From: Candidatus Buchananbacteria bacterium
GTDB taxonomy: Bacteria; Patescibacteriota; Patescibacteriia; 2-01-FULL-39-33
Reading direction: 5' to 3'
Length of the DNA: 64,000 nt
Assembly (NCBI GenBank): GCA_903888345.1
Contig: CAISTG010000007.1
Span: forward strand, 1,075 to 65,074
Part shown: piece after piece, positions 3,289 through 48,600 of the stretch
How positions within the stretch are numbered: the first letter of the stretch is position 1
How the letters are laid out: each line of letters starts with the position of its first letter
Program-made: the position numbers and the translations under genes
Notes under the pieces: generated by a model
The model's input: only the letters and a program-made list of their open reading frames with translations
Databases searched by the model: none
What the model was told of the DNA's origin: nothing

Positions 3289-3528
3289 GGTGATTAAATT
3301 AAATATTCTTAAAAAACGCCAACAGTTTGTGGTTATTTAGGCGTTAAAGTTGGCTGATAAATCAATTGTTATTATATCAGATATTTGGCATATCGCCAAG
3401 TTTGATCAATTGAGGTCAATTGGTGGTGGTTACCCCTTGATTTTATCTTGCCTTTTATGTTATTATTATATTAGTTATCAACAGGTTATGAGAGTCGATA
3501 TACTAATTTAAAATTTAGATATTTTTTC

Positions 3529-4122
3529 ATGGACAACTTATTAAGTAGTAACTTACCTCAAGAGAGTAAGTCAAAATGGCAGGCTATTTCTGAATTTTTC
3601 TGGGAAATGGTTCGGGTCGCCATTATATCACTGGTCATTATCTTACCGGTTCGCTATTTTTTGATCCAACCCTTTTATGTTAAAGGAGCTTCAATGGAGC
3701 CGAATTTTTTTGATCATGAATATCTGATTATTGATGAAATCGGCTATCGTTTTACGCCACCACAACGTGGAGATATTGTGGTCTTTAAATATCCTAAGGA
3801 TCCGAAACAATACTTCATTAAGCGTGTAATCGGCTTGCCCGGGGAAAAGATTAAAGTCCAGAATAATGCCATTTATGTTAATGGTACTAAATTAAACGAG
3901 TCCTATTTACCAGCAACCACCGAAACTTTACTGCCTTTACGTGGCTATGGTGATATTACTCTAGCAAATGACGAATATTTTTTATTAGGAGATAATCGAG
4001 AGCAAAGTTTGGATTCCCGAATTTTTGGACCAGTGCAAAGAGATTTTATTGTCGGTCGCACCTGGATTCGAGGTTGGCCCTTTAACCGGGTAACTGTTTT
4101 TGATCGTCCTAATTATCAATAA
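3529..4122 (+). CDS. lepB: signal peptidase I
   Basis: 197 aa. N-terminal TM. Catalytic Ser motif GASMEP. Box D/E GDNREQSLDSRIFGPV. Confidence 0.85.
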   Translation: MDNLLSSNLPQESKSKWQAISEFFWEMVRVAIISLVIILPVRYFLIQPFYVKGASMEPNFFDHEYLIIDEIGYRFTPPQRGDIVVFKYPKDPKQYFIKRVIGLPGEKIKVQNNAIYVNGTKLNESYLPATTETLLPLRGYGDITLANDEYFLLGDNREQSLDSRIFGPVQRDFIVGRTWIRGWPFNRVTVFDRPNYQ

Positions 4123-4165
4123 ATCAATCCTGATCGGATTTAAAAATTTTCAACTTTAATTTAAT

Positions 4166-13000: not shown

Positions 13001-16000
13001 TTGGGTTTGCCAAAAACCTCTGGCTTTGTTAGTTTAGTTAGCTCAACTGGTCAAGTGATTGATGGTTTTAATTATGGATTAAATTCCAATCAAGTTGTTC
13101 CGGGCTATTATCCTGGCTCTGTCGGCCGAAAAAATGATGGCTTAGACACTGACGCTAATAGTGATTTTATTTACTTCAGCAAGAATTCTGAAGAAGCGCT
13201 CAACACACCTAAGGCCGTTAAGACTAATACTCATTTAGTGATTAATGAGTTTGCATTAACCCATAATCCTTGTACTTGTGTACAGAAGGCGCAAATGTGT
13301 AGTTTGGGTCAGGTTGATAACACTGCTTGTGCCCCGGCCAGTCAGTGTCAACAAGTTAAACGATGTCAGGCTAATGGCCGCTTTGGTAGTTGCGAATTAG
13401 CTAAGGCTAATTGCGTGCCCTACTTACCAACCTCGTCAACTATCGCTGTTTATGCCTGGAGTTTTAATACTAATCCAGCACCACCATCGAAGGGGCCATT
13501 TATTGTTTCTGGTTGCCAAGGTAATGGCAGCTGTAATGATAATAATGTTTTGCCAAGTCCAACCCCTTGGAATGTCAAATGGAATCAATTGGCGCAACCG
13601 GAATTAAAAATTGATAATGCTTCGTCTTGTTTGAATGCGGTTATTTCCGCTCGATTTTCTGAGTCAATGGATGCCAACTCCCTTAACACTGATAATATTA
13701 AAATTTTTAAAGCGACTGGTGCTAATTGGGAAGAGGTGACTGGAGCGCTAGTTGGTAGTATTGATAAACTTACAACTGGTGAGGCGGGTGTGAATTATTT
13801 CAAGATTACTCCTAGAGATCGTTTAGCCGCCGATAGCAAATATCTAGTGTTTGTTAGTAAAAAGGTTAGCGATGAATTGGGTCGCAACCTAATAGATAAT
13901 CCGAGTGGGGTTAACAGTAGTTATTGTACTAGCACCGGTAGTGGCTTGCCAACGACGCCTGGCGTCTGCTGGCAATTTAGTACGCGCAGTGCTGGTAGCA
14001 GTAATTTATTATGCCCAGTAGGTTGTATTAGTGTTAGTCCGAAGAATTATTTTAATCGTTATTATCTTCAAGATAAGTTGCATGAGGCTACACCAATTAG
14101 TGCTGATAATGTTTGTTTGGCTTTAAATAAGCAGGATTATGCTTGGAATTGGTCTGAGTATGAACAGAGCGGGGGAGCTACTGCTCGACAATGGACTTTA
14201 CAGACGGTTGTCGAGAATGGGTTTGCACAAATGAAAGACTACTTTACCAATGTTTTTAGTGCGGGAATTTTCCATCAGAATGCTGGCCAATGGTATTCCG
14301 GTCAGGCGACGACCACTGCTTTACGAGAAACAAATTTCAGACCGTATGATATTAATAGTTGGTTTAGTTATGAAGATATTGGATATTTTAGGGTTACCGC
14401 AAAAGAAGTAGCCAGTGAGCATTTTGGCTCCGCTCCAGTCCACAATGATTTTACTGACCCAGTGGTGGTTGAAAATCAGTATTGTTCGCGCTCTGAAGAT
14501 CCCGCCAAACAAATCTTACAAAGTCCTAGTCCCTGGAAAAATCAGCAAGACGCTTGTATCAACGCTGTCGTGTTTGCGTTGTTCAGTCGTAATATGAAAA
14601 ATAGCTCGCTGGTTGATGCGACTACTGGTAAGCCGGTTAATGTTGAAGTTTATAATTGTGGCAATAATGCTGGAAAAGCAACTTCCACCGATTATAATAG
14701 TGGTTGCACTAAAGTATCTGATAATAATGGTTGGACCGCCAGTATCTTTAATTATACCCAGAAGAATTTAACACTACAGCAATTAGTTGCAGCGCAGTCG
14801 ACTGATAATTCCACTAAGTTGGAGGGCCTGCGAATTTTCCCCAAAGGAAATTTAGAAAAAAATAGTTGGTATCGAGTAGTGATTAAGGGCGGTCTTAATG
14901 GTGTTCGTGGCGGTACGGCAGGTACAGAAATAGCTGAAGGTATTTTACAGATTCCGAGCAAGAATGCGTTAATGAAAACTGGTTCTGATAATTCCTATTA
15001 TTGGTATTTCAAAACTGGATCGGGAATTTGTCCAATTGATCAAGTCGCTGTTTTGCCTCAATTTAATTATATGGATCGGGTTGGACTGACTCAAGAGTAT
15101 GAAGCTGATCCAATCGCTACTAACTGCAACCATTTAAATCCCTTTAATTATTCTTGGAATTGGCAGTCCTTACTTAATCCTTTTGATGATCGCTGTATTG
15201 ATCCGGCGACCGGTAATGGCGTAGCAACTATTTGTGCCTTAACTAGTGTTAATTGCACAAATTCTGATACTAAAATTCGCCAGCCGTTTGTTAAAGCTTT
15301 TGGTCAGACTGAAGGTGAAACAAATATTACGGCTCGTGTTGAAACGTCAACTGCCAATGAAACTTGTGTTACTGATAAGTGGGGCTATAGTCAATTACAA
15401 ATTGGTTTAGGTGCCTTCGCGGTCAGTAGTCTCAATAATTCAGATTGTTTAAATGCTGAATTAAGTTTAAATTTCTCGACTGCGGCTAGCAGCACAACAC
15501 TTCATCCCGCCTCTGCCTCTAATACTAATGGCAATATTCTATTATATCGTTGTGGTACCGGAGTTGCTGGGTGTGATAATCTCACCACCGCAAATTTAGT
15601 GGACTTAACCTTGAAATATCCCACTAATTGGCCTGCTCCAATGAAGCAAATAGTATTTGAGCCAATGACACATTTACTTGCCAATAATACTTATCGCATG
15701 GTAATTAAGGGCGGCACTAATGGTGTTATGTCTGCCAACAATACTCAACTTGAACATCTTAATTATAATATTGGCGGTGCTGCCGGTGGCGAAGCTTGTG
15801 ATCGTTCGACCGAGCCGAATAATCCATTATTAGCTAGTGTTTGTAGTGATACTTGTATTTTTAGGCCGACGGCAAATTTATGTAACACCAAATATCAAGA
15901 ATGTAATAATAAACAGGGTTTATTAGCTTATTATAATTTTGATAATAATTATAGCAATCAAGTAAATATTGGTATTGTGAGTACTTCAAGCACTTCCTTT

Positions 16001-19000
16001 GTGGCTGGTAAATTCAATCAGGCACTACATTTTGGCGCGGCTAGTCATAGCTATGCTTCGTTGCCATCAAATTGGATTAATGCGAACCAGGGGACGATTT
16101 CTTTCTGGGCTAGACCACTGGATTTGGTTGGTACACAGGGTTTATTGTATACCACTAATAATACCAATAAATTAGTAATTAACGCCGTTAATAATACCAG
16201 TACTAATAGCCGCAATTTCACTGTTTTTTATGGAACTGATAGCCGTAATGTACAATTGGTTTCAGCTGTCTCTAATATTAGTAATAAATGGAGTCAGTTA
16301 GTTTTAACTTATAATCAAAATCAATTACAATTATATGTTGATGGCCAGTTAGCCGCGACCGCTGCCAATACGACTGCACTTAGTGGTGGTTTTGGCGCCA
16401 TCTATCTTGGCAAAAATAATACTGGTCAGTTTTTTGATGGTGACTTGGATGAATTGGCAACTTATGAGTCGGTTTTAACTGTTTCCGAGATTAAGAGTTT
16501 AGCGACTCGAGGCTATCCGGAGTCTACGGCCTATCGCTGTAATAGTCTTTGCCAAAAAATGGGTATCCCTACCGCCTCTAATTATCCGTCGGGAAGTTGT
16601 AGTAATGGAAAAATTGATGCCGGTGAGCAATGTGATGATGGTAATAGTAATAATAATGATTTATGTAATAATAAGTGTTTGTGGAATGGTGTTAGTGGCG
16701 GAACCTGTGGCAATAAGGTTGTAGATAATGGACAATTTGATAGCTATTATTGGGATTTCAAATTAAGTGCTACCGCCAAAGTCTGTAATACATTAGATTG
16801 GTCTGGTTTGAATCCGTGTCCTAACGGTATTTGGTCAGTTGGTGCCGATCAGGGTGTTACTGGTTTAGCGTTGACCGCTTATCGCGGCAGTTCTGCTAAA
16901 GAAAATGATCTTTGTATCAAAGATGAGGAATTACAAAAAATTGGTTTCTGGCACCGCATTATTAATTATATTGTTAAAATCGCTAAGTCTTTCTTGGGTC
17001 TTAAGGTTGTCAGCGCCGCCGCTTACTGGTGTCCGATTAACCACTTGAATTTTGGAACAAGTGAATTGCAGGCCATGGCGCGAGGGAATTATAGCAGTTC
17101 AACGCAGTTTGCTGATGGAGCAACTGCGGAGTTAGTAGCTTATACTGATGATACTAATAACTTTAAGATAAATATTATTAGAAGTGCTGATTGGGCGGCG
17201 AGCACCGAATATAAGTTCATAGCTAGTTATAATAAAAATGGGATCATTGGAACTAGTACTGCCAATATTACTACTTTTAATAATGCAAATAGTTGCCAAT
17301 TAAAGAATATTCGTTTTGATGTTTGGCCTCGTGGCTTAGCTAAAACTGCTGATGCCTTCAATTGTGCTTCGGATCCAAAGACCGGCAAGCCGGATGATTG
17401 CGGTCGTTATTCCAGTGATCTTTATGATGATGATATGTCAGCGGCCTGGACTAAAGAATATCCAGCCAATGGTTACGATTTACATAGCGACGCTAATGTT
17501 GGCACAGCCACTAGTTATTTGCCTGGCAATCAGCATTTATATCGTCTGTGGGCTTTGACTTCAGATAAATACGTGGTGCGAGCTAATTTTTCTGCTTTGA
17601 ATTTGACTAACGTTTCGGCAGAATCAACTTCCACCTTAATCTCTGGTACGGGTTATACTGGCGATTTATGGCTAACTTCGGGCTTTAAGCCAGGCAAGTC
17701 CTTACTAAGTGCCACTGCTATTGATCAAAATGGTCGTGGTGAGTTAGGCCAAGCCGATACGGCTCTGCCGATTTATACTTTCTTCTGTAACAATCCTTGG
17801 CCCAATGCTAAGAATTTCCCTTTTATCGATTCTGCTAGCAATTGTTCGGTTGGTTCTGGTTCTTGTATTAATAGTAACTTCGGTACTTATTATTGCCGTG
17901 ATACTGGTGTCGCTAAGAGTTGTGTTCAGGGTAATAATATTGGCAAAGAATGTACTATTAATGCTGATTGTTGGACTAATAAAGCATTAGCAATAGAGGG
18001 CAGTTGCCAACTAAATACCGATGATGATTTGCCAAGTATCGGTGAATATGATGCTTTAAGTGGCAAGATTACAAAGGGTGTGGCGATGGGATTCAGCGGA
18101 GAGACCTGCCAAACTTTGCCTAGCTCATTTAAGCTAAGGTTAGGTTATCAATCTTACGTTGATAATACTAATTACGTTTGGGATACAAATTATACTAGTA
18201 TTTATCGTAACTCAGGTAATGGTTGGGAAAAGATTGATAAGGGTTTGTGGCAATTAAATGGTTTGTCGGCTAATTTCAAACCTATTTTTGGATATTCGGT
18301 TAGGGTTGGCAGTGATCCATTAGTCAATCATGATTATCTTTGGAGTGGTTCTGAAATTTATGTTTATAATGGCGCTAGTTGGCAATCCGATGCTAGTTTA
18401 AAAGCTAAAATGCAGTCAATTGGGTTCTGGCCGACTGGCGGTTATTTCTGGCAGGGTCATAATAAGGTTGGATTATTTGATGCTAATGGTAGAATTGTTA
18501 ATTTAGATTATGATGCTAATGGCAATTTTATTAACGTTTCTGCCGATACTACTTATACAGCTGTTGGCTTTACAGCGCGACCGAAGTTATTCATCGATTA
18601 TCATCAGGGTGATCGTGGTCCGTTAATGTTGGATGTTAATGGTAATGTTTGGCAGGTAACTAGCACCGCGAATCGTTTCCAACAGCAGACAATTATGCCG
18701 GCATTTACTGCCAGCTTTAATCCGCTGTGGGGTGGCACTAATTCTGACGGCTCAGTTTTCTTTGGCCTAGATCCGAAATATTTTACCCTGAATTATACGG
18801 GCAATAATCAATGGTTAGCAGCGGTCAGCGCTACGGAAAATTATAAGACCTGTGATAATAAACTGAAAGAGTTTTTGTTTGCTGGCATTAAACCTGAGGG
18901 CGGTAGTGATCTTGTTAAGGCTGGTGATGAATATAATTCGGCAACTAATGCAGCCACAGCGACTTTTACTAAAAACACTATCGATCATAGCGTTTACACT

Positions 19001-22000
19001 CTGGTCAATAATACTACGACCTATGATTTTGCTTTACCGGAAGCGGGTAATTATTATGTTACTCTAGAAACAGCCAATCACAATAATGCTAATCCCAGAG
19101 CGTCAGCGATCACTGTTTTGCCATTAGGTTTTAATGGTGCTTACGGTGATTGTGCTCAGGGGAGTAGTCTTAATGGACGCGACGTTTATCAGAAAGTCAG
19201 AATTTCTATTGATGGAAAAAACACTTCTACTTTGACTTTACTCGCCACCAATCCGGATAATCGCCAGGTTAATCGGTTGACGGCTCCAATTTTTGTTGAC
19301 GCTAAAGGCATACATCGGGTGGCGATTGAGTGGGTCAATGATTGTTATTGTTCAACTTATTTCGGCGATGCCTGCCAATATGGTGATTTAGATTCTAATT
19401 TACAAATTTACAGCGTGCGCCTGACTAATGCTAATAATCTTAGTACTAGTGATGCTATTGGTATGAGAGTTTATAATAATAATCAACATTATTCGGCCGC
19501 GCTTTGGTATCGAACTAAGTTTAATCCTTATACGCAAGGAAATCTACAAGCCATCAATGTTGATGGTAATAAAGCGGTGAGCGAGGGACGAACGGTTTAT
19601 GTTAATGCACCAGATTTCGGCGTTATTGATCCTAGTGGAGTGGGCCAGTCAGGTACCTCAATTTATTCGACTATATACTTAATGTCCTATAATGAAGGGG
19701 TTTCGCCAACTACTTTGAATATTTTCAAGCAACTGACTAATAATTGGTTTTTTAACGCTGGCGGTCATAGTGCTGGCGGTTTAGACGAGGCGGAAGATGT
19801 TGGTGTCTGTAGTGGTGGCAGCAGTGTTAGTGCTAATACCTGTGTTACGGACATTGATTGTATGAAGCGGGGCGCTGGTTACTGTGACTCCACCAAAGCA
19901 AAAGCAACCCGTGATACGGTTAGACTGAGTGATCTACAAGACATGTATTTGGCTTTAGGAAGTTATTATAATAAAACTCGTTGTTCCAATGATTTGACTC
20001 GTAGCTGTACTAATAATGCTAATTGTTTTGGTGGTGGAGTATGTGGTAATTTCTATCCGAATTTGCTTTCTGGTACTTATATTTCTGGTAAGACTTATAG
20101 TGTCTGGCCTTCGTGGCAACAAACACTCGGTAAAGAATTGGGCGTGACCTTACCAGTTGATCCCTTAAATTTGATTTATTCTAATAATTCTGGGACGGCG
20201 GTTAAATGCTCCGATCCGTATAATCCTGATACTTGTTGGAGTGAAAAAGACGCTAAGATGGATTGTCGTATTCATGCTAGTTCCAGTTTTTATACCTATT
20301 ATGGTACCAGCTTTGGTTCAACTAATGGCGGCACTGTTCAACCAGGAACCGCAGTCAGTATTTATGCTAAGGGCGAGTTATTTCCATATAATAGTGGCAA
20401 CTGGCGACCCGATTGGAATACTGTTACTAATTTACGTTATAATCCGTTTGCCAGCTACTCTTCTCAAATTAGTGGTCAGCAGTTCTGTGAACGAATTACC
20501 AATACTTGTGGTAATGGCCGGGTAGATACCGGAGAGAATTGTTCCAACTGCCCGATGGATATGGGATGCGAGGTGGGCAAGGCCTGTCAAAATTATAGTG
20601 GTAATTGGACTTGCGGACCATTACGCTTATGTGGCGATGGCCAGCGTCAGGTGGGGGAGGAGTGCGATGATCATAATACTAGTAATAATGATGGCTGTAA
20701 TAGTGAGTGCCTATGTGAAAATGGCTATGATTGCAGTGGAGGGGTTCCAGTTACGAAATGTGGTGATGGTGTGATTACGGGCAGCGAACAGTGTGAACAG
20801 ACCAGTAATGGCCCAAGTTGCGGTAACCAAACTTATCAAGGGCAGAGTTGTTGTAATACTGAAACTTGCCGATTGAATAGTTGGTATCGTACCAATATGT
20901 CTTGTGGTGATGGTATTAAAATCGATCAAGAGGATTGTGATTGTGGCACTGTTGGTAATTCCATCTTTGCGTCGCGTACAGCTGATGGTTCGCCGCCAAA
21001 TCCCTTTGCTTGTCGAGTTAGTAATCAAGACGCTGCAGTTGTGTCATCAACCGTTTGGAATCTAACTCCTTTAGCTTATCAATATTGTCTCAAAGATACT
21101 TGTCAGGGTCGTACGGCCGAAGCGCTATATTGCGGCGATGGTATTTTAACGCCAGCCAATGAAGCCTGCGATAAGGCAGTAAATGGCAGTAAATATTGTT
21201 CTGATACTTGCCAGTGTGCGGCTGGAGCAACTTGCGATGGAACCCATACTTGTGGTTATAAACCAGGCGATGGCGTGTGTGATAGTGCTTGCGGTGAAAC
21301 GCATATTGCTAATACCTGCGATGATTGCGCCCCTTGTCATAACGGTGAAGCTTATACCGGTGGCACCTATAATAATGATGCTTGTTGTGGCGCTGATTGC
21401 AATTTAGTTACTGGAAAAATTGATCCTTTTGATACGCCAACTTTTTGTGGAGCTGGCAGTTCACTGACTTGCAACGCCCTTTGTACGGCTACCAGTTATA
21501 GTACTGGTTGCGGTCAAACACATAATAATGCTGATTGCACGCCGGCCACTCCCGCCTGGAGCTGTACGCAACAGGTGAGTACTTGTGTCCATTATCCCGA
21601 CTGTACTAATGCTGTTACTAATTCGGTCTTCGGACCATTTTGCGGTGATCTAACGCGTAATGGCTCTGAGACAACTGCTATTGGAACTGGTTATTTCTGT
21701 GGTCAAGATTTACCGCCGACAAACATTCAAAGTGGCTGGGATATCCATATTTCTCAAGTTACTAGTCCTTGTACTTTGGCGCAAACCTACACGTCATTTG
21801 ATGACGAAAAGTCAGGCAGTAGAATTACAGCTAAGGGATCGACTGCTGATTTAGCTACTAATTTTAGGATTAATTTTAATACAGATCCGACTTCTGATTT
21901 CCTGTTTCAGTTAAGTCCTCGAAGAAGCGATGGCAACTATTATAGTCCTATTGTTAGAGAGGGGAAGAATTTTTGGGGCACGCCAGTCAATGAGTTTACG

Positions 22001-22258
22001 GCCGATGGTTCCGTTTGTGCTGGTGGCGGCGCTTGTTGGTTCAAATTAGTCGATCTTAATGGCAATGATGTGCATCGGGATACGCTTCGATATGGCGTAC
22101 CTTATAAACTACAATATACTGATGCGGAAATGGGCAATGGAACAGCAGGAGCAGTTTGGCGAACCGTTGGTTTGAATGGTGTCAGTCCAGCTGAGTGGCG
22201 CGCTAATGGTTCCGACGATATGATAATTATGCTATTTAATAATCAGGGCAACTTATAA
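10007..22258 (+). CDS. giant surface protein 2 (4083 aa): pilin-like N-terminal module, two LamG/concanavalin-like domains, EGF-like and Myxococcus-type cysteine-rich repeats
   Basis: 12.25 kb uninterrupted ORF. N-terminus ALLGVIALVILLYAGFIWMTSQGDPGKIEKAKNMIYGAVIGLIIIFSAYA. LamG_3-like signatures (FTWSVWFKPE...WHQVAVTFD...LYIDGEE...FDDILIYDRVLNLAEI and ISFWARP...WSQLVLTYN...LYVDGQL...LDELATYESVLTVSEI). CGDG-x-ECDDGN repeats near the C-terminus. Confidence 0.85.
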   Translation: MSKSIKNIIFLTVATLVLAIPFLALASSGVTAGTPTLAGLQSVFGAGNLTQIIARILQLFFALLGVIALVILLYAGFIWMTSQGDPGKIEKAKNMIYGAVIGLIIIFSAYAVASLIFNYFRPQTTTCTTPGEQQDCSVAYCNSTRTGYRECSAGKVWSSCHYDTSCGDDSIDFYSQAFANIFKFSDSASFPNWPGVAWDYSRNRSKLVALPRSATLQVEAYAHITGVNSKIDNLHLWETSSTERDLAAFTITGAGARGTYNFAWASTTWGTKDFAYDTTAIKVRINENNSLESKPVKVLFCADHYFDGLKNYDETGIDCGPGCLNCAGEACKKPGSDVCSADNCASGICNTDCRCASAPEITYVDPALDVNNDTNRLNLVASQIDDDISNGAVNNYVTIFGRNFGSATGTVKFSPLAGNLQVPAVVACAKSWSNNQIVVLIPSTLVPNESITTDSAIAAATPVRNYTINVQPAASTLFSNAWGFQVNKIERPGICQMTPGSGAYPTITTANGSNFPTTGVQSVIWSISGEFSTTSAAGRVTWYSAPFNVTSTAATNWTAASVKDVVPQNRLGRSGVRVYNGNVYSNYYVFQISDGKVGSPCGYDSQVCDQDLDTCGDSAVTGLQCQNCQRGDFSCDSSKNCTCQPLVAPTCTSDQACSSGGCSGTQQCLQGKLQPCVTVPGCVGFLGKSSTNSLFSWAFLANKQIGPGKQCLSELWNDETCSLSGCLDSNLACDTESSTDEFVELYNPTGVASDLSGLGVVYGESPVVTDGLLGYYQFNNSLKNSAPGSVDSLMVVNGGNLSNNIDCINLGCVNSRGARFMVAESKVNSSTLANFTWSVWFKPENLDNAAQFTDLLTKIGSNASQYIQLFWLNSTQELGFKWTNSFRLAKAGNARNKWHQVAVTFDDASNLATLYIDGEEIGKRTVAASISDNKYADLNIKLGSTSLTNQASFDDILIYDRVLNLAEIKNIYTYRGRSLSGNLAAGTVLSLRGTATTPLGLPKTSGFVSLVSSTGQVIDGFNYGLNSNQVVPGYYPGSVGRKNDGLDTDANSDFIYFSKNSEEALNTPKAVKTNTHLVINEFALTHNPCTCVQKAQMCSLGQVDNTACAPASQCQQVKRCQANGRFGSCELAKANCVPYLPTSSTIAVYAWSFNTNPAPPSKGPFIVSGCQGNGSCNDNNVLPSPTPWNVKWNQLAQPELKIDNASSCLNAVISARFSESMDANSLNTDNIKIFKATGANWEEVTGALVGSIDKLTTGEAGVNYFKITPRDRLAADSKYLVFVSKKVSDELGRNLIDNPSGVNSSYCTSTGSGLPTTPGVCWQFSTRSAGSSNLLCPVGCISVSPKNYFNRYYLQDKLHEATPISADNVCLALNKQDYAWNWSEYEQSGGATARQWTLQTVVENGFAQMKDYFTNVFSAGIFHQNAGQWYSGQATTTALRETNFRPYDINSWFSYEDIGYFRVTAKEVASEHFGSAPVHNDFTDPVVVENQYCSRSEDPAKQILQSPSPWKNQQDACINAVVFALFSRNMKNSSLVDATTGKPVNVEVYNCGNNAGKATSTDYNSGCTKVSDNNGWTASIFNYTQKNLTLQQLVAAQSTDNSTKLEGLRIFPKGNLEKNSWYRVVIKGGLNGVRGGTAGTEIAEGILQIPSKNALMKTGSDNSYYWYFKTGSGICPIDQVAVLPQFNYMDRVGLTQEYEADPIATNCNHLNPFNYSWNWQSLLNPFDDRCIDPATGNGVATICALTSVNCTNSDTKIRQPFVKAFGQTEGETNITARVETSTANETCVTDKWGYSQLQIGLGAFAVSSLNNSDCLNAELSLNFSTAASSTTLHPASASNTNGNILLYRCGTGVAGCDNLTTANLVDLTLKYPTNWPAPMKQIVFEPMTHLLANNTYRMVIKGGTNGVMSANNTQLEHLNYNIGGAAGGEACDRSTEPNNPLLASVCSDTCIFRPTANLCNTKYQECNNKQGLLAYYNFDNNYSNQVNIGIVSTSSTSFVAGKFNQALHFGAASHSYASLPSNWINANQGTISFWARPLDLVGTQGLLYTTNNTNKLVINAVNNTSTNSRNFTVFYGTDSRNVQLVSAVSNISNKWSQLVLTYNQNQLQLYVDGQLAATAANTTALSGGFGAIYLGKNNTGQFFDGDLDELATYESVLTVSEIKSLATRGYPESTAYRCNSLCQKMGIPTASNYPSGSCSNGKIDAGEQCDDGNSNNNDLCNNKCLWNGVSGGTCGNKVVDNGQFDSYYWDFKLSATAKVCNTLDWSGLNPCPNGIWSVGADQGVTGLALTAYRGSSAKENDLCIKDEELQKIGFWHRIINYIVKIAKSFLGLKVVSAAAYWCPINHLNFGTSELQAMARGNYSSSTQFADGATAELVAYTDDTNNFKINIIRSADWAASTEYKFIASYNKNGIIGTSTANITTFNNANSCQLKNIRFDVWPRGLAKTADAFNCASDPKTGKPDDCGRYSSDLYDDDMSAAWTKEYPANGYDLHSDANVGTATSYLPGNQHLYRLWALTSDKYVVRANFSALNLTNVSAESTSTLISGTGYTGDLWLTSGFKPGKSLLSATAIDQNGRGELGQADTALPIYTFFCNNPWPNAKNFPFIDSASNCSVGSGSCINSNFGTYYCRDTGVAKSCVQGNNIGKECTINADCWTNKALAIEGSCQLNTDDDLPSIGEYDALSGKITKGVAMGFSGETCQTLPSSFKLRLGYQSYVDNTNYVWDTNYTSIYRNSGNGWEKIDKGLWQLNGLSANFKPIFGYSVRVGSDPLVNHDYLWSGSEIYVYNGASWQSDASLKAKMQSIGFWPTGGYFWQGHNKVGLFDANGRIVNLDYDANGNFINVSADTTYTAVGFTARPKLFIDYHQGDRGPLMLDVNGNVWQVTSTANRFQQQTIMPAFTASFNPLWGGTNSDGSVFFGLDPKYFTLNYTGNNQWLAAVSATENYKTCDNKLKEFLFAGIKPEGGSDLVKAGDEYNSATNAATATFTKNTIDHSVYTLVNNTTTYDFALPEAGNYYVTLETANHNNANPRASAITVLPLGFNGAYGDCAQGSSLNGRDVYQKVRISIDGKNTSTLTLLATNPDNRQVNRLTAPIFVDAKGIHRVAIEWVNDCYCSTYFGDACQYGDLDSNLQIYSVRLTNANNLSTSDAIGMRVYNNNQHYSAALWYRTKFNPYTQGNLQAINVDGNKAVSEGRTVYVNAPDFGVIDPSGVGQSGTSIYSTIYLMSYNEGVSPTTLNIFKQLTNNWFFNAGGHSAGGLDEAEDVGVCSGGSSVSANTCVTDIDCMKRGAGYCDSTKAKATRDTVRLSDLQDMYLALGSYYNKTRCSNDLTRSCTNNANCFGGGVCGNFYPNLLSGTYISGKTYSVWPSWQQTLGKELGVTLPVDPLNLIYSNNSGTAVKCSDPYNPDTCWSEKDAKMDCRIHASSSFYTYYGTSFGSTNGGTVQPGTAVSIYAKGELFPYNSGNWRPDWNTVTNLRYNPFASYSSQISGQQFCERITNTCGNGRVDTGENCSNCPMDMGCEVGKACQNYSGNWTCGPLRLCGDGQRQVGEECDDHNTSNNDGCNSECLCENGYDCSGGVPVTKCGDGVITGSEQCEQTSNGPSCGNQTYQGQSCCNTETCRLNSWYRTNMSCGDGIKIDQEDCDCGTVGNSIFASRTADGSPPNPFACRVSNQDAAVVSSTVWNLTPLAYQYCLKDTCQGRTAEALYCGDGILTPANEACDKAVNGSKYCSDTCQCAAGATCDGTHTCGYKPGDGVCDSACGETHIANTCDDCAPCHNGEAYTGGTYNNDACCGADCNLVTGKIDPFDTPTFCGAGSSLTCNALCTATSYSTGCGQTHNNADCTPATPAWSCTQQVSTCVHYPDCTNAVTNSVFGPFCGDLTRNGSETTAIGTGYFCGQDLPPTNIQSGWDIHISQVTSPCTLAQTYTSFDDEKSGSRITAKGSTADLATNFRINFNTDPTSDFLFQLSPRRSDGNYYSPIVREGKNFWGTPVNEFTADGSVCAGGGACWFKLVDLNGNDVHRDTLRYGVPYKLQYTDAEMGNGTAGAVWRTVGLNGVSPAEWRANGSDDMIIMLFNNQGNL

Positions 22259-28581: not shown

Positions 28582-28610
28582 TTGACAGTGACTTCTGGGA
28601 CGGGTATAAT
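28582..28610 (+). promoter_or_regulatory. consensus sigma70 promoter for nrdD (TTGACA-17-TATAAT)
   Basis: ttgaca 28582..28587, 17-nt spacer, tataat 28605..28610. About 40 nt upstream of the nrdD ATG. Confidence 0.55.
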
Positions 28611-28652
28611 GATACTAATTAAAGCCTTAAAAATAAAAATTGATTGCTACTT

Positions 28653-30701
28653 ATGGAGACGCAAATTAAGCAAATTCGCAAACGAAACGGTGAAATTTCT
28701 GATTTTGACCAAAAAAAGATTACCGCAGCTATTTATAAATCATTAGCGGCAGTAGGTCGTGATGATGAGGCTTTAGCTAGTAAGCTTTCGGATCAGGTTG
28801 TTCATATTATGAACAGCAAGTTTCATCCTCGATCAATCCCGGCCATTGAAGAAGTTCAGGATACCGTAGAAGAGGTTTTAATTAAAGAAGATTTAGTCAA
28901 AGCGGCTAAGTCCTATATTATTTATCGCGAACAACATGCTCGTTTGCGTGAACTCAAGCAATTATTGGATTCTAATGATATTATTGAAGGCTATTTAAAG
29001 AAAATGGATTGGCGCGTCAAAGAAAATGCTAACATGGCCTATTCTTTACAGGGCTTAAATAACCACGTGGCTTCCGCTGTTTCCTCTCACTACTGGTTAA
29101 ATAAGATTTATCCGCCGGAAATTAGAAACGCTCATAATGATGGCACTGTCCACTTGCATGATTTACAGATTTTGGCAGTTTACTGTTGTGGTTGGGATTT
29201 ACAGACTTTATTGCGCGTCGGTTTTAGTGGCGTGGAGGGAAAAGTTCAGTCCAAGCCACCAAAGCGCTTTCGTTCGGCCTTGGGTCAAGTAGTTAATTTT
29301 TTCTATACCTTGCAGGGTGAGGCCGCTGGCGCTCAAGCCTTTGCTGACTTTGATACTTTGCTCGCTCCTTTTATCCGATATGAAGCACTCGATTATAAAC
29401 AGGTGAAGCAAGCGATCCAGGAATTCGTCTTCAATATGAATGTGCCGACTCGAGTAGGGTTCCAAACTCCTTTTACTAACTTAACTTTTGACCTAGCCTG
29501 CCCGAAGACTCTGGCCAATGAGCCAGTAGTTATTGGTGGTGTGCCGCAGCGTGAAACTTACAAGGATTTTCAGCGAGAGATGGATATGATCAATCGCGCC
29601 TTTGCTGAGGTGATGATGGAGGGTGATGCCAAGGGACGTGTATTTACTTTTCCAATTCCGACCTATAATATTTCCGAAGATTTCAATTGGGATAATGAGG
29701 TGTTAGATCCAATTTGGGAAATGACCGCCAAGTATGGTATTCCATATTTTGCCAACTTTGTTAATTCCGACATGAAAGCGGAAGACGCTCGTTCCATGTG
29801 TTGTCGCTTACGTTTAGATAATCGTGAATTGCGCAAGCGTGGTGGTGGAATGTTTGCCGCCAACCCTTTAACTGGTTCAATTGGTGTCGTTACGATCAAT
29901 TTGCCGCGCATTGGTTATTTATCTAAAGGTAATAAGCAGGCTTTCTTTTCGAGATTATCTCAGACTATGGATTTGTCTCGTGTTTCTTTGAAATTAAAGC
30001 GCAATGTTTTAGAAAATTTCACTGAAATGGGGCTCTATCCTTATTCTCGTTTTTATTTGGGTGACATTAAAGAGCGCTTTGGACAGTATTGGCGTAATCA
30101 TTTCAATACTATTGGGTTAAATGGCATGAATGAGGCGATGGTCAATTTCTTGGGCAAGCCCTTGTCTTCGAAAGAGGGCGGCGAATTTGCGACCGAAGTG
30201 ATGGATTTCATGTTACAACGTTTGGGCCAGTATCAAGAAGAAGATGACCAGTTATATAACTTAGAGGCTACGCCAGCTGAGGGCGCCACTTATCGTTTCG
30301 CCAAACGCGACAAAGAATTGTACCCAGACATTGTTGTCGCCAATGAAGAAAACTTCCAGAGCAAGGGTGCCGCTCCCTATTATACTAACTCCACTCATTT
30401 CCCCGTTAATTATTCCACCGATATTTTTGATGTTTTAGAAAAGCAAGATGGTTTGCAAATTAAGTATACTGGCGGAACAGTCGTGCATATTTTCTTGGGT
30501 GAGAAATTACCAGATATTAAGAGCACAAAAGCCTTAGTCAAAAAAGTTGCCGAATCCTTCAAGCTACCTTATTACACCTTAACCCCAACTTTCTCGATTT
30601 GTCCGAAACACGGCTACTTGCCAGGTGAGCATCGCTTCTGCCCGATGTGCGACAACGAAGTCGGTTACATCCGGGAGCAGAAAGAAAAATTACCCCTTTA
30701 A
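28653..30701 (+). CDS. nrdD: anaerobic ribonucleoside-triphosphate reductase (class III), ATP-cone plus catalytic body plus Zn ribbon; the ORF ends before a complete glycyl-radical domain
   Basis: ATG at 28653 (the track uses a TTG at 28644). N-terminal ATP-cone IRKRNGEISDFDQKKITAAI. C-terminal Zn ribbon CPKHGY...CPMC. Ends ...DNEVGYIREQKEKLPL then TAA. Confidence 0.85.
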   Translation: METQIKQIRKRNGEISDFDQKKITAAIYKSLAAVGRDDEALASKLSDQVVHIMNSKFHPRSIPAIEEVQDTVEEVLIKEDLVKAAKSYIIYREQHARLRELKQLLDSNDIIEGYLKKMDWRVKENANMAYSLQGLNNHVASAVSSHYWLNKIYPPEIRNAHNDGTVHLHDLQILAVYCCGWDLQTLLRVGFSGVEGKVQSKPPKRFRSALGQVVNFFYTLQGEAAGAQAFADFDTLLAPFIRYEALDYKQVKQAIQEFVFNMNVPTRVGFQTPFTNLTFDLACPKTLANEPVVIGGVPQRETYKDFQREMDMINRAFAEVMMEGDAKGRVFTFPIPTYNISEDFNWDNEVLDPIWEMTAKYGIPYFANFVNSDMKAEDARSMCCRLRLDNRELRKRGGGMFAANPLTGSIGVVTINLPRIGYLSKGNKQAFFSRLSQTMDLSRVSLKLKRNVLENFTEMGLYPYSRFYLGDIKERFGQYWRNHFNTIGLNGMNEAMVNFLGKPLSSKEGGEFATEVMDFMLQRLGQYQEEDDQLYNLEATPAEGATYRFAKRDKELYPDIVVANEENFQSKGAAPYYTNSTHFPVNYSTDIFDVLEKQDGLQIKYTGGTVVHIFLGEKLPDIKSTKALVKKVAESFKLPYYTLTPTFSICPKHGYLPGEHRFCPMCDNEVGYIREQKEKLPL

Positions 30702-30719
30702 TTAATAACATAAAAACCT

Positions 30720-30890
30720 ATGGAAGGTGACAACAAAGAGCAGTTACGACAACCCTGCGAAGTGTATTCTCGCATCGTTGGCTACATTCGACCAGTCGAC
30801 CAATGGAACCCGGGCAAGCAAGCGGAATTTTCCGACCGGAGTACCTTTGAATCAGGCTGTTCGTGTACTGGTGAGGAATTCACAGTCTAA
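30720..30890 (+). CDS. stand-alone glycyl-radical module of NrdD (56 aa), same frame as nrdD, separated by two TAA stops
   Basis: MEGDNKEQLRQPCEVYSRIVGYIRPVDQWNPGKQAEFSDR... aligns with the E. coli NrdD C-terminus RRVCGYLGSPDARPFNAGKQEEVKRR (radical Gly). Below the 60-aa cutoff of the ORF track. Confidence 0.55.
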   Translation: MEGDNKEQLRQPCEVYSRIVGYIRPVDQWNPGKQAEFSDRSTFESGCSCTGEEFTV

Positions 30891-30936: not shown

Positions 30937-31626
30937 ATGCTTATTGGCGGCTTACAGCCCGTAACCCTTTTAGATTATCCGCAAAAAGTGGCAGCAATCA
31001 TATTCACCGCAGGGTGCAATATGCGCTGTCCTTTTTGTTATAATTTCAAATTGGTTTTGCCGGAATTGATTAATCGTGATAATCTATATGAAGAAGACAA
31101 GGTCATTGATTTCTTAAAAAGGCGTAAGAAATACCTTGACGGCTTAGTAATTACCGGTGGTGAACCGACACTGCAGCCAGACCTACCTGAGTTTTTGCGG
31201 AAGATGAAAAAAATTGGCTATTCGATTAAGCTCGACACTAATGGTCTCTGGCCGGAAGTGGTGGCGGCCTTGATCGAAGAGGGTTTGGTAGATTATATTG
31301 CCATGGACATCAAGGGCCCGAAAGATAGTTACGAAAAATTTGCCGGTGTTAAAGCGGGTCGGATTGAAGAAACTATTAGTTTAATAATGAATTCCGCTTT
31401 ACCTTATGAATTTCGTAGTACGCTCGTCAAGGGCTTGCATATGGCGGAGGACATTACGTTAATGGCAGAGTTGATTAAGGGTTCCGATTTGTATTATTTA
31501 CAAAATTATGGCACCAGTGATCCACTCGCTGGTCCAAATTTTAAGGGGCGCTCCTTTACGATCAAAGAATTGACTGAGTTTCAGTCGTTAATTGGTAATC
31601 AAGTTAAAAGTTGCTCAATTAGATAA
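30937..31626 (+). CDS. nrdG: anaerobic ribonucleotide reductase activating protein (radical SAM)
   Basis: 229 aa. Radical-SAM CNMRCPFCYN cluster. GGEPTL SAM-binding motif. Confidence 0.85.
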   Translation: MLIGGLQPVTLLDYPQKVAAIIFTAGCNMRCPFCYNFKLVLPELINRDNLYEEDKVIDFLKRRKKYLDGLVITGGEPTLQPDLPEFLRKMKKIGYSIKLDTNGLWPEVVAALIEEGLVDYIAMDIKGPKDSYEKFAGVKAGRIEETISLIMNSALPYEFRSTLVKGLHMAEDITLMAELIKGSDLYYLQNYGTSDPLAGPNFKGRSFTIKELTEFQSLIGNQVKSCSIR

Positions 31627-31638
31627 AGTGACGCCACT

Positions 31639-31787
31639 GTGTCATTCTGGACTCTCTTTATGTCGTGGATGGTTCACTGTATGTCATTCCGGGCTTGATC
31701 CGGAATTTGCGCCCTTACTAATGACACGCAACGAGATTCCGGCTCAAGGCCGGAATGACAAGGGGAGGGGCCGGGAATAAGGCCGCC
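31639..31787. repeat. solo copy of MITE-like palindromic element (GTCATTCCGG...CCGGAATGACA termini)
   Basis: tgtcattctgg (degenerate), tgtcattccgggcttgatccggaat, attccggctcaaggccggaatgaca. Homologous to copies at 45.1-45.5 kb and 46.57 kb. Confidence 0.7.
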
Positions 31788-31826
31788 AATATAGTTATTA
31801 TACTAATTCTCAATTAATCCAAAAAT

Positions 31827-32083: not shown

Positions 32084-33188
32084 ATGAACGAGCTCAGCGA
32101 GCAAATAAAGGTTTTGGCAGAAAAAATTTCTGCTACTTGGAGGTTACTTTGACCTTGATCAAACCAAAAAAGAATTAGCTGAATTAGAAACGGAGTTACA
32201 AGCTCCGGATTTTTGGGCTGATCAAGATCGGGCCAAAGAACTTTCTCAGCGCTATCAGAATTTAAAATCTGAATTGGGGGTATGGGATCAATTGACTAAT
32301 GATGTTAAGGACTTGGAGGAGTTAGCGGAATTATTTTCCGCCAATCATGACGAAGATGGTCAACAGCAGGAACTCAAAGAAAAATTAACCAAACTATCAG
32401 AACAATTTAAAAAATTAGAATTTAATGTGTTATTCGCCGGTCCGCATGATGCTAGTAATGCGATTTTGTCGTTACATGCTGGTACTGGTGGTGTTGACGC
32501 CATGGACTGGGCAAGCATGTTGCTAAGAATGTATTTGCGTTTTTGTGAACGGCATGGCTTTACCGCGAAAATCATTGACGAAACTCCAGGCGCGGAAGCG
32601 GGGATTAAAAGTGTTACGCTCGAGATCACTGGTCGCTTTGCTTATGGTTGGTTAAAGTCCGAAGCGGGAGTGCATCGTTTAGTACGAATTTCGCCATTTG
32701 ATGCGGAAAAAATGCGCCATACTTCTTTTGCTTTAGCCGAAGTCTTGCCGGAAATTATTGAAACTGATGATAATTCGATTATTAAAGAAGAGGATTTAAA
32801 GATCGACGTTTTTCGCTCTGGTGGCAGTGGCGGTCAATCAGTTAATACGACTGATTCGGCGGTGCGCATTACTCATTTGCCGACGGGGATCATGGTAAAA
32901 TGTCAAAATGAACGATCACAACTACAAAATCGTAATTTAGCGCTCAAAGTTTTAAAGGCGAAGTTGGCGGTATATTATGAAGAACGCGCCAGTAAGAATT
33001 TGGAAGAGATTAAGGGAGAGCATCGTCGCGCTGAGTGGGGCAATCAGGCCCGATCTTATGTCTTAGCGCCCTATCGCCTCGTTAAGGATCATCGCACTGA
33101 ATATGAGACGGCGGATACTGATCGCGTTCTTGATGGCGAGATTGATGATTTTGTCGAAAAATTTCTACGTTTTAAAATAGAAAAATAA
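32084..33188 (+). CDS. prfB: peptide chain release factor 2, expressed via programmed +1 frameshift (join 32084..32149, 32151..33188)
   Basis: ORF0 MNELSEQIKVLAEKISATWRLL stops at UGA 32150..32152. The +1 frame continues LDLDQTKKELAELETELQAPDFW... through to the GGQ motif SGGSGGQSVNTTDSAVRITHLPTG. Confidence 0.85.
32139..32153 (+). promoter_or_regulatory. RF2 autoregulatory frameshift site: internal SD GGAGG, 3-nt spacer, CUU UGA C
   Basis: ggagg tta ctt tga c. Identical spacing to the canonical E. coli prfB site. Confidence 0.8.
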
Positions 33189-45609: not shown

Positions 45610-48600
45610 ATGATCGAATTTAAGAAAAAAGTGCTTAAACATTTACAATCAGAACGATTGCGAGTGTTGGCACTTCAAGCCAAAAAATTTGCTCAAGCCA
45701 AGAAGGCTCACGCCGTTTTTCTAATTAAATTAACGGTGATTTTAGTCGCTTTTTTTAGTGCTGCCGGGATTTTGATTCCCCAGTATAAAATTGATGAGTC
45801 TTTGGTTATTAAAAATCCGGCAATCAAACAAACGACGGCCATTGTGGCGGGTGGGAAGCCGATTAAATATAGTGTTTTGGTAAGACGAACAGAAATTTCC
45901 GATGGTAGTTATTTACTTAAACTGCCTAAGACTGCTAATAACATTGAAGTGGCGACGGCGACTACTAAGCAAATCAAAACCTTATTGTCTGCACCAGAGC
46001 AAATTACTCCCTTAAAGCAACGTGAATTGCTAGCTAAACAGCACCCCAATCTCCAGTCCGGCCTGATTATTAATACCTATCAAGCTTTGGCTGTTCCTTT
46101 GAAATCAATGGTGACCGATCTGTCTTGTCGTTTAACATTGCGACCAAGAGACGCCGTGGTTGTTAATTTAGCGCAGGAGATTAATTTGACGTCAGTCAGA
46201 CAGACGCGATTAAGTAATCATTTGAGTCCGAGTTTATTGGCGATTTTTGTGAGTCCAGAGCTTAGTTGGTCTCGCTATCTAAATGAGCTTATTGGTAATT
46301 TCATTAAAGTGGCCGCGGCTCAGACAGTGGAAGAAATTCCGACTGCCGCTAGCGAATCACCAACTATTGGCTCAGATCCGTTACAAAATTTAATTGACTC
46401 TTTGACGGCTGAACCAAGTGATGTTGTTCCGCCGATTAAGGTTCCTGAGGTTGTGGCTCCCATTGTTGCTTCAGTTTCTAGCACTTTGCCAGAAGTCAAG
46501 GTAGAGCCGATTGATATTGATGTCGCAACCAATGGTTTGCCAGTAGTGCCAACGGTCGTCACCTCTAGTCATTCCGGGCTTGAACCGGAATCTGAGCCCA
46601 CCTCATCAACAACTCAAATGGAGATTCCGGATCAGGTCCGGAATGACAATAGCGGCCTTCCAGAATCTGCCCCCGCTTCCTCCACCGAATTCGTCAAAAT
46701 TGACTTCGAAACCCCGGCTCCAATTATCACCGAACAAAACACTGACTCTGGCAAGTTGGTAACGATTTCTGACCCCAATGAAAATCCAGAAACACCGATG
46801 GTTGACGTTCTCGCCTCTACCAAAATTCCGCCGATTTACAAAGTCGGGCAAGAAGCCAAAATTCACATCAAATGGAAAAACAACGGCGACCAAAACATGA
46901 GTTTCCAGGCTTATGATAGCGACGCCGATGGTTACCTTGATTACGTCGAATGGACTGTCCCGCATCTATCCGAGCAAGTTTTTGAAATTATCTTCATCTC
47001 CAAGGCTTTTCAACTCGATAATGATAAAAATATTATTGCCGATATTTATTCTCAAACTTCCGCCAAAGACGGTAATTACGCTTCCGTCGCTGACGGGCAA
47101 TACGTCCGTGCAACCTTTGATTATGAATTAAATAGTGCAAATGACATTACTATTTATGCCAAAGCGTCGACTACTAATAATCATGGATCAATAGCGGTCT
47201 ATCCAGTCTACACTGACGCCGATGGCAATCAAACCGAAGGCCCGAAACTCGAGACAGTTTATGATGGCAATAACCCTGATTTCAAAAATATTGATCGCGA
47301 TGGCAAATATCGAATCTTGCTAACAAACCTAGATAAGCCAACGGACGTTTTTGATCTCAAAATTTCTGGCGATGTCGATATTGACTTCATCGTTGATCCA
47401 GTCAGCTGGCTCACGGGTTGGAATTATCGCAAATCTCTCACAGTCAATCACTTATATGTTGGCGGTGGCAATGGCAGTGCGGGGGGATCAGAAGACGAAA
47501 CGAATTTTCCAGTCGAAATTTCACTCACTGGATTATCTAATGTTAATGCTAGCGGAACAGATATTAGATTTACAGCCTCAGACGGCGTGACTCCACTTGC
47601 TAGAGAAATCGAATCATATTCTACCACCACTGGTACTCTTGTTGCTTGGGTTAAAGTGCCGACAGTTTCCTATACCGTCGATACCATGATTTATGTTTAT
47701 TATGGCAACTCTTCAGCCACAGAACCGGCTGCCAATTCCACTTATGGCGCGCAGAATGTTTGGACTAATGGCTTTGCTGGAGTTTGGCATTTGGCTGGAG
47801 CAACAAATTCGAGTGATTTAGATTCTACTAGTAATAATAGTACTGGTACGCCATTAGGTGCGACCAAGCCAACTCAGACAACAGGGCAGATTAATGGCGC
47901 CCTAAGTTTTAATGGCAGTACGAGTTATGTTGATATTGCTGAGCCAGGCTCAAGTTTAAATTTTTCTTCTACAAATAATTTCTCATATTCGGCTTGGGTT
48001 AAAACAACTCAGAGCAGTACTCGCTCGGAAATCGTTGGTGATTTTAATAACAACCCGGCGACTAATATGGAGGTGGCGACCGTTGCCAATAGCTCAAATA
48101 TTGATGGAGCCTTTCGAGTTTACTTGGCTGATGGTACTTCAAATATCAAGGATTATCGCACGAATATTTCTATCGCTGACGGAGCTTGGCATAAAGTCGG
48201 CTTCTCATATGCTTCTACTAGCCAAGTGCTGACACTATTTGTTGATGGTGTGGCTCAATCAAACCCGCAAAAAGTATATGATGCCGCGCTTTCTGGCAAT
48301 CTTTATAATGCTTCTACAATAAAAATTGGCGAAGACAATCGACCCGTTACTTTTTTCTTCAATGGCTTAATTGACGAGCTTGGTATTTCCTCAGTCGCTC
48401 GTTCAGCCGGTTGGATAAAAACAGAATACAATAATCAAAACGCCCCGAGCAGTTTTTATGCCACGGGCGCGGAAGAAGCACTGGTCACTCCGGCTAGCAA
48501 CTTCACTTGGACTAATGGCTCCGGTGATGGTAAATGGAGCACTGCCGGAAACTGGCAAGGTGGGGTAGTGCCGGGACCGAGTGACACGGCAACATTTAGC

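Follow-up and report, generated by a model that had tools for sequence, protein, structure and literature searches.

Glycyl-radical enzymes are viewed as single chains, in which the radical domain swings out to the activase and back in to work. In the stretch of Candidatus Buchananbacteria DNA analysed here (64 kb of contig CAISTG010000007.1, hereafter the window), the gene for one of these enzymes, NrdD, the catalytic subunit of class III (anaerobic) ribonucleotide reductase (RNR), lies in two pieces: a large open reading frame (ORF) that stops shortly after the zinc ribbon, and a small ORF of 56 amino acids (aa) that holds the glycyl-radical loop. Together with the neighbouring activase gene, these pieces form a set (nrdD-large, nrdD-small and nrdG) that very probably is an operon for a natural, obligate two-subunit class III RNR. 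The anatomy of the genes, the complementarity of their profile matches, the independent starts, the purifying selection on both pieces and the wide conservation of the arrangement are all directly observed.

Two Complementary ORFs for One NrdD

The large-subunit gene (28653..30701 on the forward strand, as are all features below) encodes a 682-aa protein with an ATP-cone, an alpha/beta barrel, a finger loop, SMCC(383/384)RL, a zinc ribbon and a short tail, and without a glycyl-radical loop. A Pfam scan places the ATP-cone at aa 7–96 and the NRDD domain at aa 124–669. The start is the ATG at 28653, with an alternative TTG at 28644, and an identical 682-aa protein (P0115) is found in a public collection. 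According to both the window sequence and the list of ORFs, the large ORF ends in ...FCPMCDNEVGYIREQKEKLPL-TAA, with the stop at 30699–30701. The same frame continues as tta ata aca TAA (30711–30713) aaa cct up to the ATG at 30720; the intergenic spacer is thus AT-rich, 18 nucleotides (nt) long (30702..30719) and contains a second in-frame TAA. The small-subunit gene (30720..30890) has this ATG as its own start, begins MEGDNKEQLRQPCEVYSRIVGYIRPVDQWNPGKQAEFSDR and encodes the glycyl-radical loop (RIVG21YIRP), a WNPGK motif, a helix and an acidic Cys-x-Cys tail. An earlier note on this DNA had claimed that nrdD ends just past the zinc ribbon, with the radical domain in a separate 56-aa ORF behind two in-frame TAA stops, and the sequence, the ORF list and the profile coverage bear this out. 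The third gene, nrdG (30937..31626; 229 aa), encodes the radical S-adenosylmethionine activating enzyme and scores 204 bits against NCBIfam TIGR02495 (NrdG2), for which the cut-off is 131.

Profile comparisons assign both pieces to the same family. The large ORF belongs to the class III RNR catalytic subunit NrdD (PF13597, TIGR02487, PRK08270) by its core, above the curated cut-offs, with 1029 bits against PRK08270 (cut-off 548) and 531 bits against TIGR02487 (cut-off 326). The 562 positions of the Pfam NRDD profile are divided between the large ORF (1–530, E = 1.6e-184) and the small ORF (532–562, E = 3e-10), and the 684 positions of NCBIfam PRK08270 are covered from 2 to 653 by the former and from 648 to 682 by the latter. 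The tail of the large ORF does not contain a complete radical domain, a case that the earlier note had named as fatal to its proposal: the profile match ends at position 530 of 562. The C-terminal radical loop (RxxGY ... NxGK), which in NrdD is located on the same chain, is found here on the separate ORF, and the cognate NrdG of a class III RNR is present alongside. The only Pfam match of the small ORF is PF13597, with the pyruvate formate-lyase (PFL) type PF01228 absent from its matches.

The residues of the radical chemistry can be traced on both pieces by comparison with the NrdD of Prevotella copri (P. copri), whose residue numbering (Gly711 and Cys416) is taken from PMC11226230. Cys384, the predicted thiyl-radical cysteine, stands opposite the thiyl Cys416 of P. 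copri NrdD in a phmmer alignment; the codons of Cys383 and Cys384, in the finger loop, occupy 29799..29804. Gly21 of the small ORF (ggc codon, 30780..30782), the predicted radical glycine, is aligned to the radical Gly711. The finger loop of the large subunit is of the double-cysteine MCCR type described in PMC9669993, where it is judged compatible with formate or thioredoxin as reductant. The zinc-ribbon region (30600..30650), read from the sequence, comprises C650-P-K-H653 ... C663-P-M-C666 and is followed by the tail of the large subunit (30651..30698), DNEVGYIREQKEKLPL, which belongs to a clade motif, CPxCDxE[IVM]G[YF]. The small subunit terminates in GCSCTGEEFTV (30858–30890), including C47-S-C49 (30858..30866). 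This combination of Cys-x-Cys and an acidic tail recalls the redox-shuttle tails of class I and class II RNRs, and two or more cysteines occur in the C-terminal tail of 40 of the 111 close small proteins, compared with none of the 119 unsplit Paceibacteria NrdD proteins.

The putative promoter lies in front of the large ORF. A hairpin with a T-run behind ftsZ precedes a TTGACA-17-TATAAT site (28582..28610), about 40 nt 5' of nrdD, which is called promoter-like purely from its agreement with the consensus (12 matches of 12) in a consensus scan and in the sequence. Between the large ORF, the small ORF and nrdG, the same scan revealed no promoter-like or terminator-like site. Given a single upstream promoter-like site and no internal signal, the three genes would be transcribed together as an operon. 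The gene order large–small–nrdG is also found in the relatives L081–L084.

Authenticity of the Break

Stop codons in a normally continuous gene could stem from an artefact of sequencing or assembly, or could mark a gene that has recently become a pseudogene, the latter being one of the possibilities listed in the earlier note. Nothing further than the stop codons themselves speaks for this explanation, the probability of which is negligible. Over 180 nt around the junction, five contigs that were assembled independently from other samples match the window exactly, ruling out an assembly artefact, and the exact 56-aa small protein has been recorded on 9 contigs, with its cluster members named as metagenome-assembled genomes of Candidatus Buchananbacteria or Patescibacteria. 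Hundreds of diverged genomes share the architecture.

The substitution pattern leads in the same direction on both sides of the break. Compared with three close relatives, the small ORF shows synonymous change (pS) of 0.68–0.91 and non-synonymous change (pN) of 0.11–0.16. The post-ribbon tail of the large subunit shows a pS of 0.60–0.71 and a pN of 0.03 against L081 and L083, and is more diverged against L084 (pN of 0.15, with synonymous sites saturated). Since synonymous change is saturated and non-synonymous change is low, both of the termini created by the split are maintained as protein, and these values indicate strong purifying selection on the two pieces. With pN much lower than pS on either side of the break, and with the wide distribution of the split, a pseudogene can be ruled out as well, the recent pseudogenisation proposed earlier being contradicted by the conservation.

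The stops could instead be overcome during translation, through read-through of the two TAA codons or through a bypass in which the ribosome leaves the first VGYIR and resumes at the second, so that both ORFs would be joined into a single-chain NrdD. The window itself lends some colour to this idea, since its ORFs share the same frame, are only 18 nt apart and have VGYIR on both sides. Nevertheless, the relatives whose small ORFs are 79–87% identical to that of the window (L081–L084) have spacers of 32 nt in another frame (L083), 39 nt in the same frame (L084) and 105 nt in the same frame with many stops (L081 and L082). Spacer length and frame thus vary in close relatives, while the protein sequences of the tail and of the small ORF are kept, and all three frame relations, as well as overlaps, occur across the family. 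The two VGYIR copies differ at four of their five third codon positions, so the take-off and landing codons are unmatched, and the junction RNA is unstructured (z = -1.0, not unusual). There is no tRNA gene in the 64-kb window, and hence no suppressor tRNA is visible there. TAA is the usual stop codon, ending 23 of the 28 long ORFs in the window. About 1.2 kb downstream, prfB (32084–33188) encodes release factor 2 (RF2) with its own classical +1 programmed frameshift (ATG at 32084, GGAGG at 32139–32143 and CTT TGA C at 32147–32153). A canonical RF2 with a +1 frameshift site nearby argues that the organism uses the standard stop-codon set. Taken with the variable spacers and frames, these data make the bypass or read-through envisaged in the earlier note extremely unlikely.

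Conservation of the Split in Bacteria and Archaea

The search with the small ORF retrieved 114 clusters (90% identity) of stand-alone proteins of 39–97 aa, all of them members of the NRDD family, and several of these clusters sit on contigs of 50–381 kb. A profile search of 1.84 billion representatives (50% identity) produced 4853 matches, the best 150 of which are all 49–159 aa long. E14, S17, R18, G21, Y22, R24, P25, W29, K33, E36 and R40 are invariant in the alignment of the small proteins; the catalytic residues known to matter are kept in all of these stand-alone forms.

For the large ORF, the earlier note had asked for a comparison with orthologues, and the outcome is uniform: the 120 best homologues (66–100% identity), which come from Buchanan-, Falkow-, Kuenenbacteria and others, all lack the radical motif (120/120). 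Each of the 120 carries the tail motif CD-x-[ED]-x-G, and, with three exceptions, the residue after its glycine is Y or F.

When GTDB was scanned with one genome for each species, 591 stretches were confirmed that code for a relative of the small ORF. Among the best 80 loci, at least 22 consist of a truncated large ORF and, directly downstream of it, a small ORF. These split loci, 22 in number, belong to Patescibacteria (Dojka-, Veblen- and other lineages), DPANN archaea (Micrarchaeota, Woesearchaeota and Nanobdellota) and the Bipolaricaulota/Acetothermia group; the Saccharicrinis locus L012 was left out of the count, because it looks like a frameshift-ridden long-read assembly. The tail motif is found in most of the split loci, with the Bipolaricaulota/Acetothermia group and L058 departing from it. 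The gap between the large and small ORFs ranges from -68 (overlap) to +179 nt, with the frame relations 0, +1 and +2 all represented, and several split loci have a clear Shine-Dalgarno site before the small ORF.

The Bipolaricaulota/Acetothermia loci (L038, L050, L056, L065 and L069; ~3900–4020) have a particular layout, where the small ORF begins before the large ORF has ended. An AAGGAGG lies 7–8 nt before the TTG or GTG start of the small ORF, within the last codons of the large ORF, so that the codons for QGGIK in the large ORF also serve as the ribosome-binding site of the small one. A frameshift was considered for these loci and rejected in favour of an overlapping small ORF with the AAGGAGG and a TTG/GTG start.

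The proposal of a genuinely two-piece enzyme, the first option of the earlier note, is upheld by the split in hundreds of clusters, the own starts and the purifying selection, although the analogy with GrcA that accompanied it holds only in part. A stricter form of that analogy would make the small ORF a spare part of the GrcA/YfiD kind, which only replaces the oxygen-damaged radical domain of an otherwise complete enzyme encoded elsewhere, and the large ORF of the window would be a copy that is decaying or has no catalytic role. Some members of the family could plausibly serve as spare parts, given that a stand-alone radical-domain protein beside a full-length NrdD exists (L035), that orphan copies adjoin rubrerythrin or hemerythrin genes (L037 and L010) and that phages carry copies too. 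For the window pair, such a role is very unlikely. The large ORFs without a radical domain, in the window as in its 120 closest homologues, nonetheless keep every other catalytic element and are highly conserved; the small ORF is always placed between the large ORF and nrdG; and no second radical-domain or radical-loop sequence was found elsewhere within the 64-kb window. As the small protein is the only source of a radical glycine in the window, its role would be that of an obligate subunit, rather than of a replacement part for an intact enzyme.

Structural Model and Proposed Mechanism

The two window proteins were joined end to end and modelled with AlphaFold. The alignment used (A4) consisted of the fused sequence and unsplit Paceibacteria NrdD homologues only, and it aligns the true radical loop correctly; two other alignments were discarded, one with the short proteins scattered (A2) and one in which the VGY of the tail was put on the unsplit radical loop (A3). 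In A4, C384 and the zinc-ribbon columns C650, H653, C663 and C666 are invariant. The fused model has a mean predicted local distance difference test score (pLDDT) of 83 and a predicted template modelling score (pTM) of 0.78, and Foldseek matches it to solved NrdD structures with template modelling (TM) scores of 0.74–0.77. The tail of the large subunit (664–677) is modelled as a helix, followed by a disordered linker at 680–690, where the natural C- and N-termini are located. The small piece forms a hairpin (696–701/704–707), with Gly703 (Gly21) at its tip, and then a helix (713–721), at pLDDT ~80–87, while its tail (727–738) is disordered, with pLDDT below 50. The model is consistent with the canonical docking of the radical loop.

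On this basis, a division of labour between the two subunits may be proposed. The large subunit would supply the ATP-cone, the catalytic barrel, the thiyl Cys384 and the zinc ribbon, whereas the small subunit, translated from its own ATG, would bring only the glycyl-radical finger (Gly21) and a short helix. NrdG, with S-adenosylmethionine, would abstract a hydrogen from Gly21, leaving the radical on the small subunit. The hairpin of this subunit would then dock non-covalently in the barrel beside Cys384, at the place where the covalent radical domain sits in single-chain NrdD, and the radical would shuttle between Gly21 and Cys384 in each turnover. The existence of phage orphan genes for the small subunit, unaccompanied by a large subunit, argues that the small protein acts in trans.

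Several points weigh against the two-subunit enzyme. The assembly of the two proteins, the activation of the small one by NrdG and the catalytic activity are all deduced. The covalent fusion and the alignment of unsplit homologues bias the model towards the canonical arrangement, and the finger loop around Cys384 is of low confidence (pLDDT ~52–59). The view of the genome extends over 64 kb, and a second intact RNR could be encoded elsewhere. The small ORF has no Shine-Dalgarno site; the same is true of 24 of 25 other genes in the window, where a Shine-Dalgarno-like site precedes just 1 of 25 long ORFs and the leaders are AT-rich, like the spacer between the large and small ORFs.

Origin of the Split

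An unsplit Nanoarchaeota relative, L025, preserves the linker in one piece, reading ...CPTCDKENNYKEGDAESALKRTKCEVYSRVVGY. This linker resembles the ends of the split proteins joined together, ...EIGYK(E)* + MEGDNKE.LRQPCEVYSR, which argues that the fission probably took place within an existing linker, most likely one of the form ...CDxEIGY-K-EGD...CEVYSR. In a neighbour-joining tree, the split forms of Patescibacteria constitute one clade, while those of DPANN are interleaved with unsplit Bathyarchaeia and L025. Crude as this tree is, it tentatively suggests more than one fission, or a re-fusion.

The D-x-E-[IVM]-G-[YF] motif of the large-subunit tail is found throughout the Patescibacteria clade and in most DPANN split forms, and some of the tails stop 2–3 residues past GY, for example ...CDEEIGYKE. 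The earlier note had pointed out that VGYIR occurs twice and had attributed this to a recent duplication or insertion of ~100 nt that introduced the stops. The repeat is real, with synonymous differences between its copies; the recent duplication is contradicted by the clade-wide occurrence of the tail motif and by the unsplit linker of L025. It was also considered whether the EIGY of the tail acts as a decoy plugging the slot of the radical loop. This is unlikely, since AlphaFold makes the tail a surface helix, and the EIGY glycine is placed 5 residues past the last zinc-ribbon Cys, compared with ~8–11 in the unsplit proteins inspected, which also speaks against a decoy.

Inteins are present in several relatives. 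P0116, which is 99% identical to the large subunit of the window, contains a 322-aa intein between VGFQ and TPFTN; the intein-bearing versions of the large subunit (P0116 and L084:947–3961) are ~1004 aa long, and the window allele is intein-free. In L025 (1013–4198), the intein lies exactly between the two finger-loop cysteines, at the catalytic Cys.

RNR genes attract such mobile elements, as the inteins of P0116 and L025 illustrate, and split phage RNR genes have been documented (PMC3653736). The spacer could accordingly be a scar left by an intron, intein or homing endonuclease that has since been lost, as in the phage RNR genes-in-pieces, with the split tolerated and devoid of a function of its own. 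This is very unlikely. The break has neither an intein nor an intron: its 18-nt spacer holds no remnant of an element, the inteins of relatives are inserted at other sites, and an Rfam scan of the window gave no match, including no intron or other known RNA at the junction. Moreover, the split occurs at the same linker in very distant lineages and has long been kept, with dedicated conserved termini (the tail motif and the MEGD start). A scar would concern the origin of the split only and is compatible with a working two-subunit enzyme.

Palindromic repeats of the type GTCATTCCGG...CCGGAATGAC are located after nrdG (31640–31790), where they overlap a spurious-looking ORF of 62 aa, and L005 has a similar palindromic element in the spacer that separates its large and small ORFs. 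Farther away, the window contains two giant ORFs of ~4083 and ~6130 aa (10007–22258 and 45610–64000), apparently typical large Candidate Phyla Radiation (CPR) proteins.

Other Architectures and Phage Copies

A CxxC...CxxC ribbon of their own precedes the radical loop in 63 of the 262 small proteins, about a quarter. A second split architecture (L085, L086, L088 and L089; ~2350–5280) comprises nrdR, a large NrdD that keeps its ribbon and ends in ...CPKCVAEAERVKPQKITIE, and a small subunit of 91–93 aa with an additional zinc ribbon before the radical loop. In L035 (1901–5262), a full-length NrdD with its own loop is followed, after 36 nt, by an extra 86-aa ORF with a zinc ribbon and a radical loop, and then by nrdG; this is the arrangement expected of a true class III RNR spare part. 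Orphan proteins with a zinc ribbon and a radical loop are encoded next to a rubrerythrin gene (L037:3027–4108) and next to a hemerythrin-domain gene (L010:3809–4622). Both rubrerythrin and hemerythrin are linked to oxygen or oxidative stress.

Viral contigs of IMG/VR (L095–L174) also carry members of the family. Among the best 80 matches, 67 are stand-alone small ORFs of 46–147 aa, and just one of these is accompanied by an NrdD body within 3 kb. Nearby genes include those for the minor head protein, large terminase, head-tail adaptor, endonuclease VII and exonuclease. L087 is likewise a phage contig with an orphan NrdD-type glycyl-radical minigene.

From these layouts, a wider but tentative view may be put forward, which is possible rather than probable. 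The radical loop of class III RNR might be an exchangeable, consumable protein cofactor, provided as a separate subunit of 5–10 kDa in CPR bacteria, in DPANN archaea and in certain other anaerobes. It would be an obligate subunit in cases such as the window and a true spare part beside a full-length NrdD (L035, and the orphans next to rubrerythrin or hemerythrin genes), and the phage copies might keep up or take over the deoxynucleoside triphosphate (dNTP) synthesis of the host. If this were true, cleavage by O2 at the glycine would require the replacement of ~50 residues instead of a 680-residue enzyme, the small subunit could be activated off the enzyme by NrdG, and the phage copies would be the class III counterpart of Y06I, the spare part of phage T4.

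A separate radical domain of 56 residues offers a direct system to study recognition by the activase, docking of the loop and repair of the oxygen-damaged enzyme by subunit exchange. The split also bears on the dNTP supply of ultra-small, oxygen-exposed CPR and DPANN symbionts, and the orphan copies in phages suggest a new kind of auxiliary metabolic gene. Automatic annotation gives a 50-aa protein and a truncated 680-aa protein the same NrdD name, and such same-named pairs could be misread as pseudogenes or fragments.

Comparison with Known Systems

In the literature searched, outside which most subscription journals lie, no account of a split NrdD or of an NrdD spare part was found, and the split form is widespread and apparently undescribed so far. 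By profile and fold, the window pair belongs to the same family as the single-chain NrdD enzymes of phage T4 (1H7A), E. coli, P. copri (8P23) and T. maritima (4COI). The ATP-cone, the finger-loop cysteine, the zinc ribbon, the RxxGY loop and an adjacent NrdG are common to both. The difference lies in the loop, which is the covalent C-terminus of the single-chain enzymes and a separate 56-aa protein in the window, where the large chain has a conserved tail of its own.

The phage RNR genes-in-pieces, such as nrdA-a/nrdA-b of Aeromonas phage Aeh1 and the nrdD fragments of phiAS4 and Lactococcus phage 949 (PMC3653736), are also translated as separate fragments. However, they are sporadic and of recent date, the genes having been broken at various sites by introns, inteins or homing endonucleases, whereas the window split affects a single linker, without any element, and is shared across phyla. 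A stop within an otherwise continuous frame, with a repeated peptide motif on both sides, is reminiscent of read-through and of the bypass in T4 gene 60, but the codons in the window are unmatched, the RNA is unstructured, and the frame and spacing are not conserved in relatives.

Splitting has been treated as distinct to class II RNR (PMC9669993). The split class II enzyme NrdJa/NrdJb of Pseudomonas aeruginosa (Crona et al. 2015, as cited in PMC9669993) resembles the window pair in having two adjacent genes, with a C-terminal functional module on the second polypeptide. NrdJa/NrdJb is nevertheless a B12-dependent class II enzyme, and the piece that is separated contains zinc-finger and redox modules rather than the radical-bearing residue.

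The closest parallels in function are GrcA/YfiD of E. coli and Y06I of phage T4, the only validated spare parts, others having been speculated for other glycyl-radical enzymes (Andorfer et al., PMC8683613); a 2026 review (PMC13450708) describes spare parts as known only for formate lyases. Like them, the window protein is a small stand-alone loop protein, presumably activated by the activase of the parent enzyme, that would dock in a large subunit without a functional radical domain. Phage-encoded versions are known for both GrcA-type (PMC8683613) and NrdD-type small proteins. The small ORF is not a member of the PFL-type Gly_radical or GrcA families, and a partner whose own domain would be replaced after cleavage by oxygen is found only in loci such as L035. 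GrcA is a PFL-type protein of ~14 kDa that rescues an enzyme normally equipped with its own domain, whereas the window protein is of the NrdD type, has a mass of 6.5 kDa and is paired with a partner that never has the domain.

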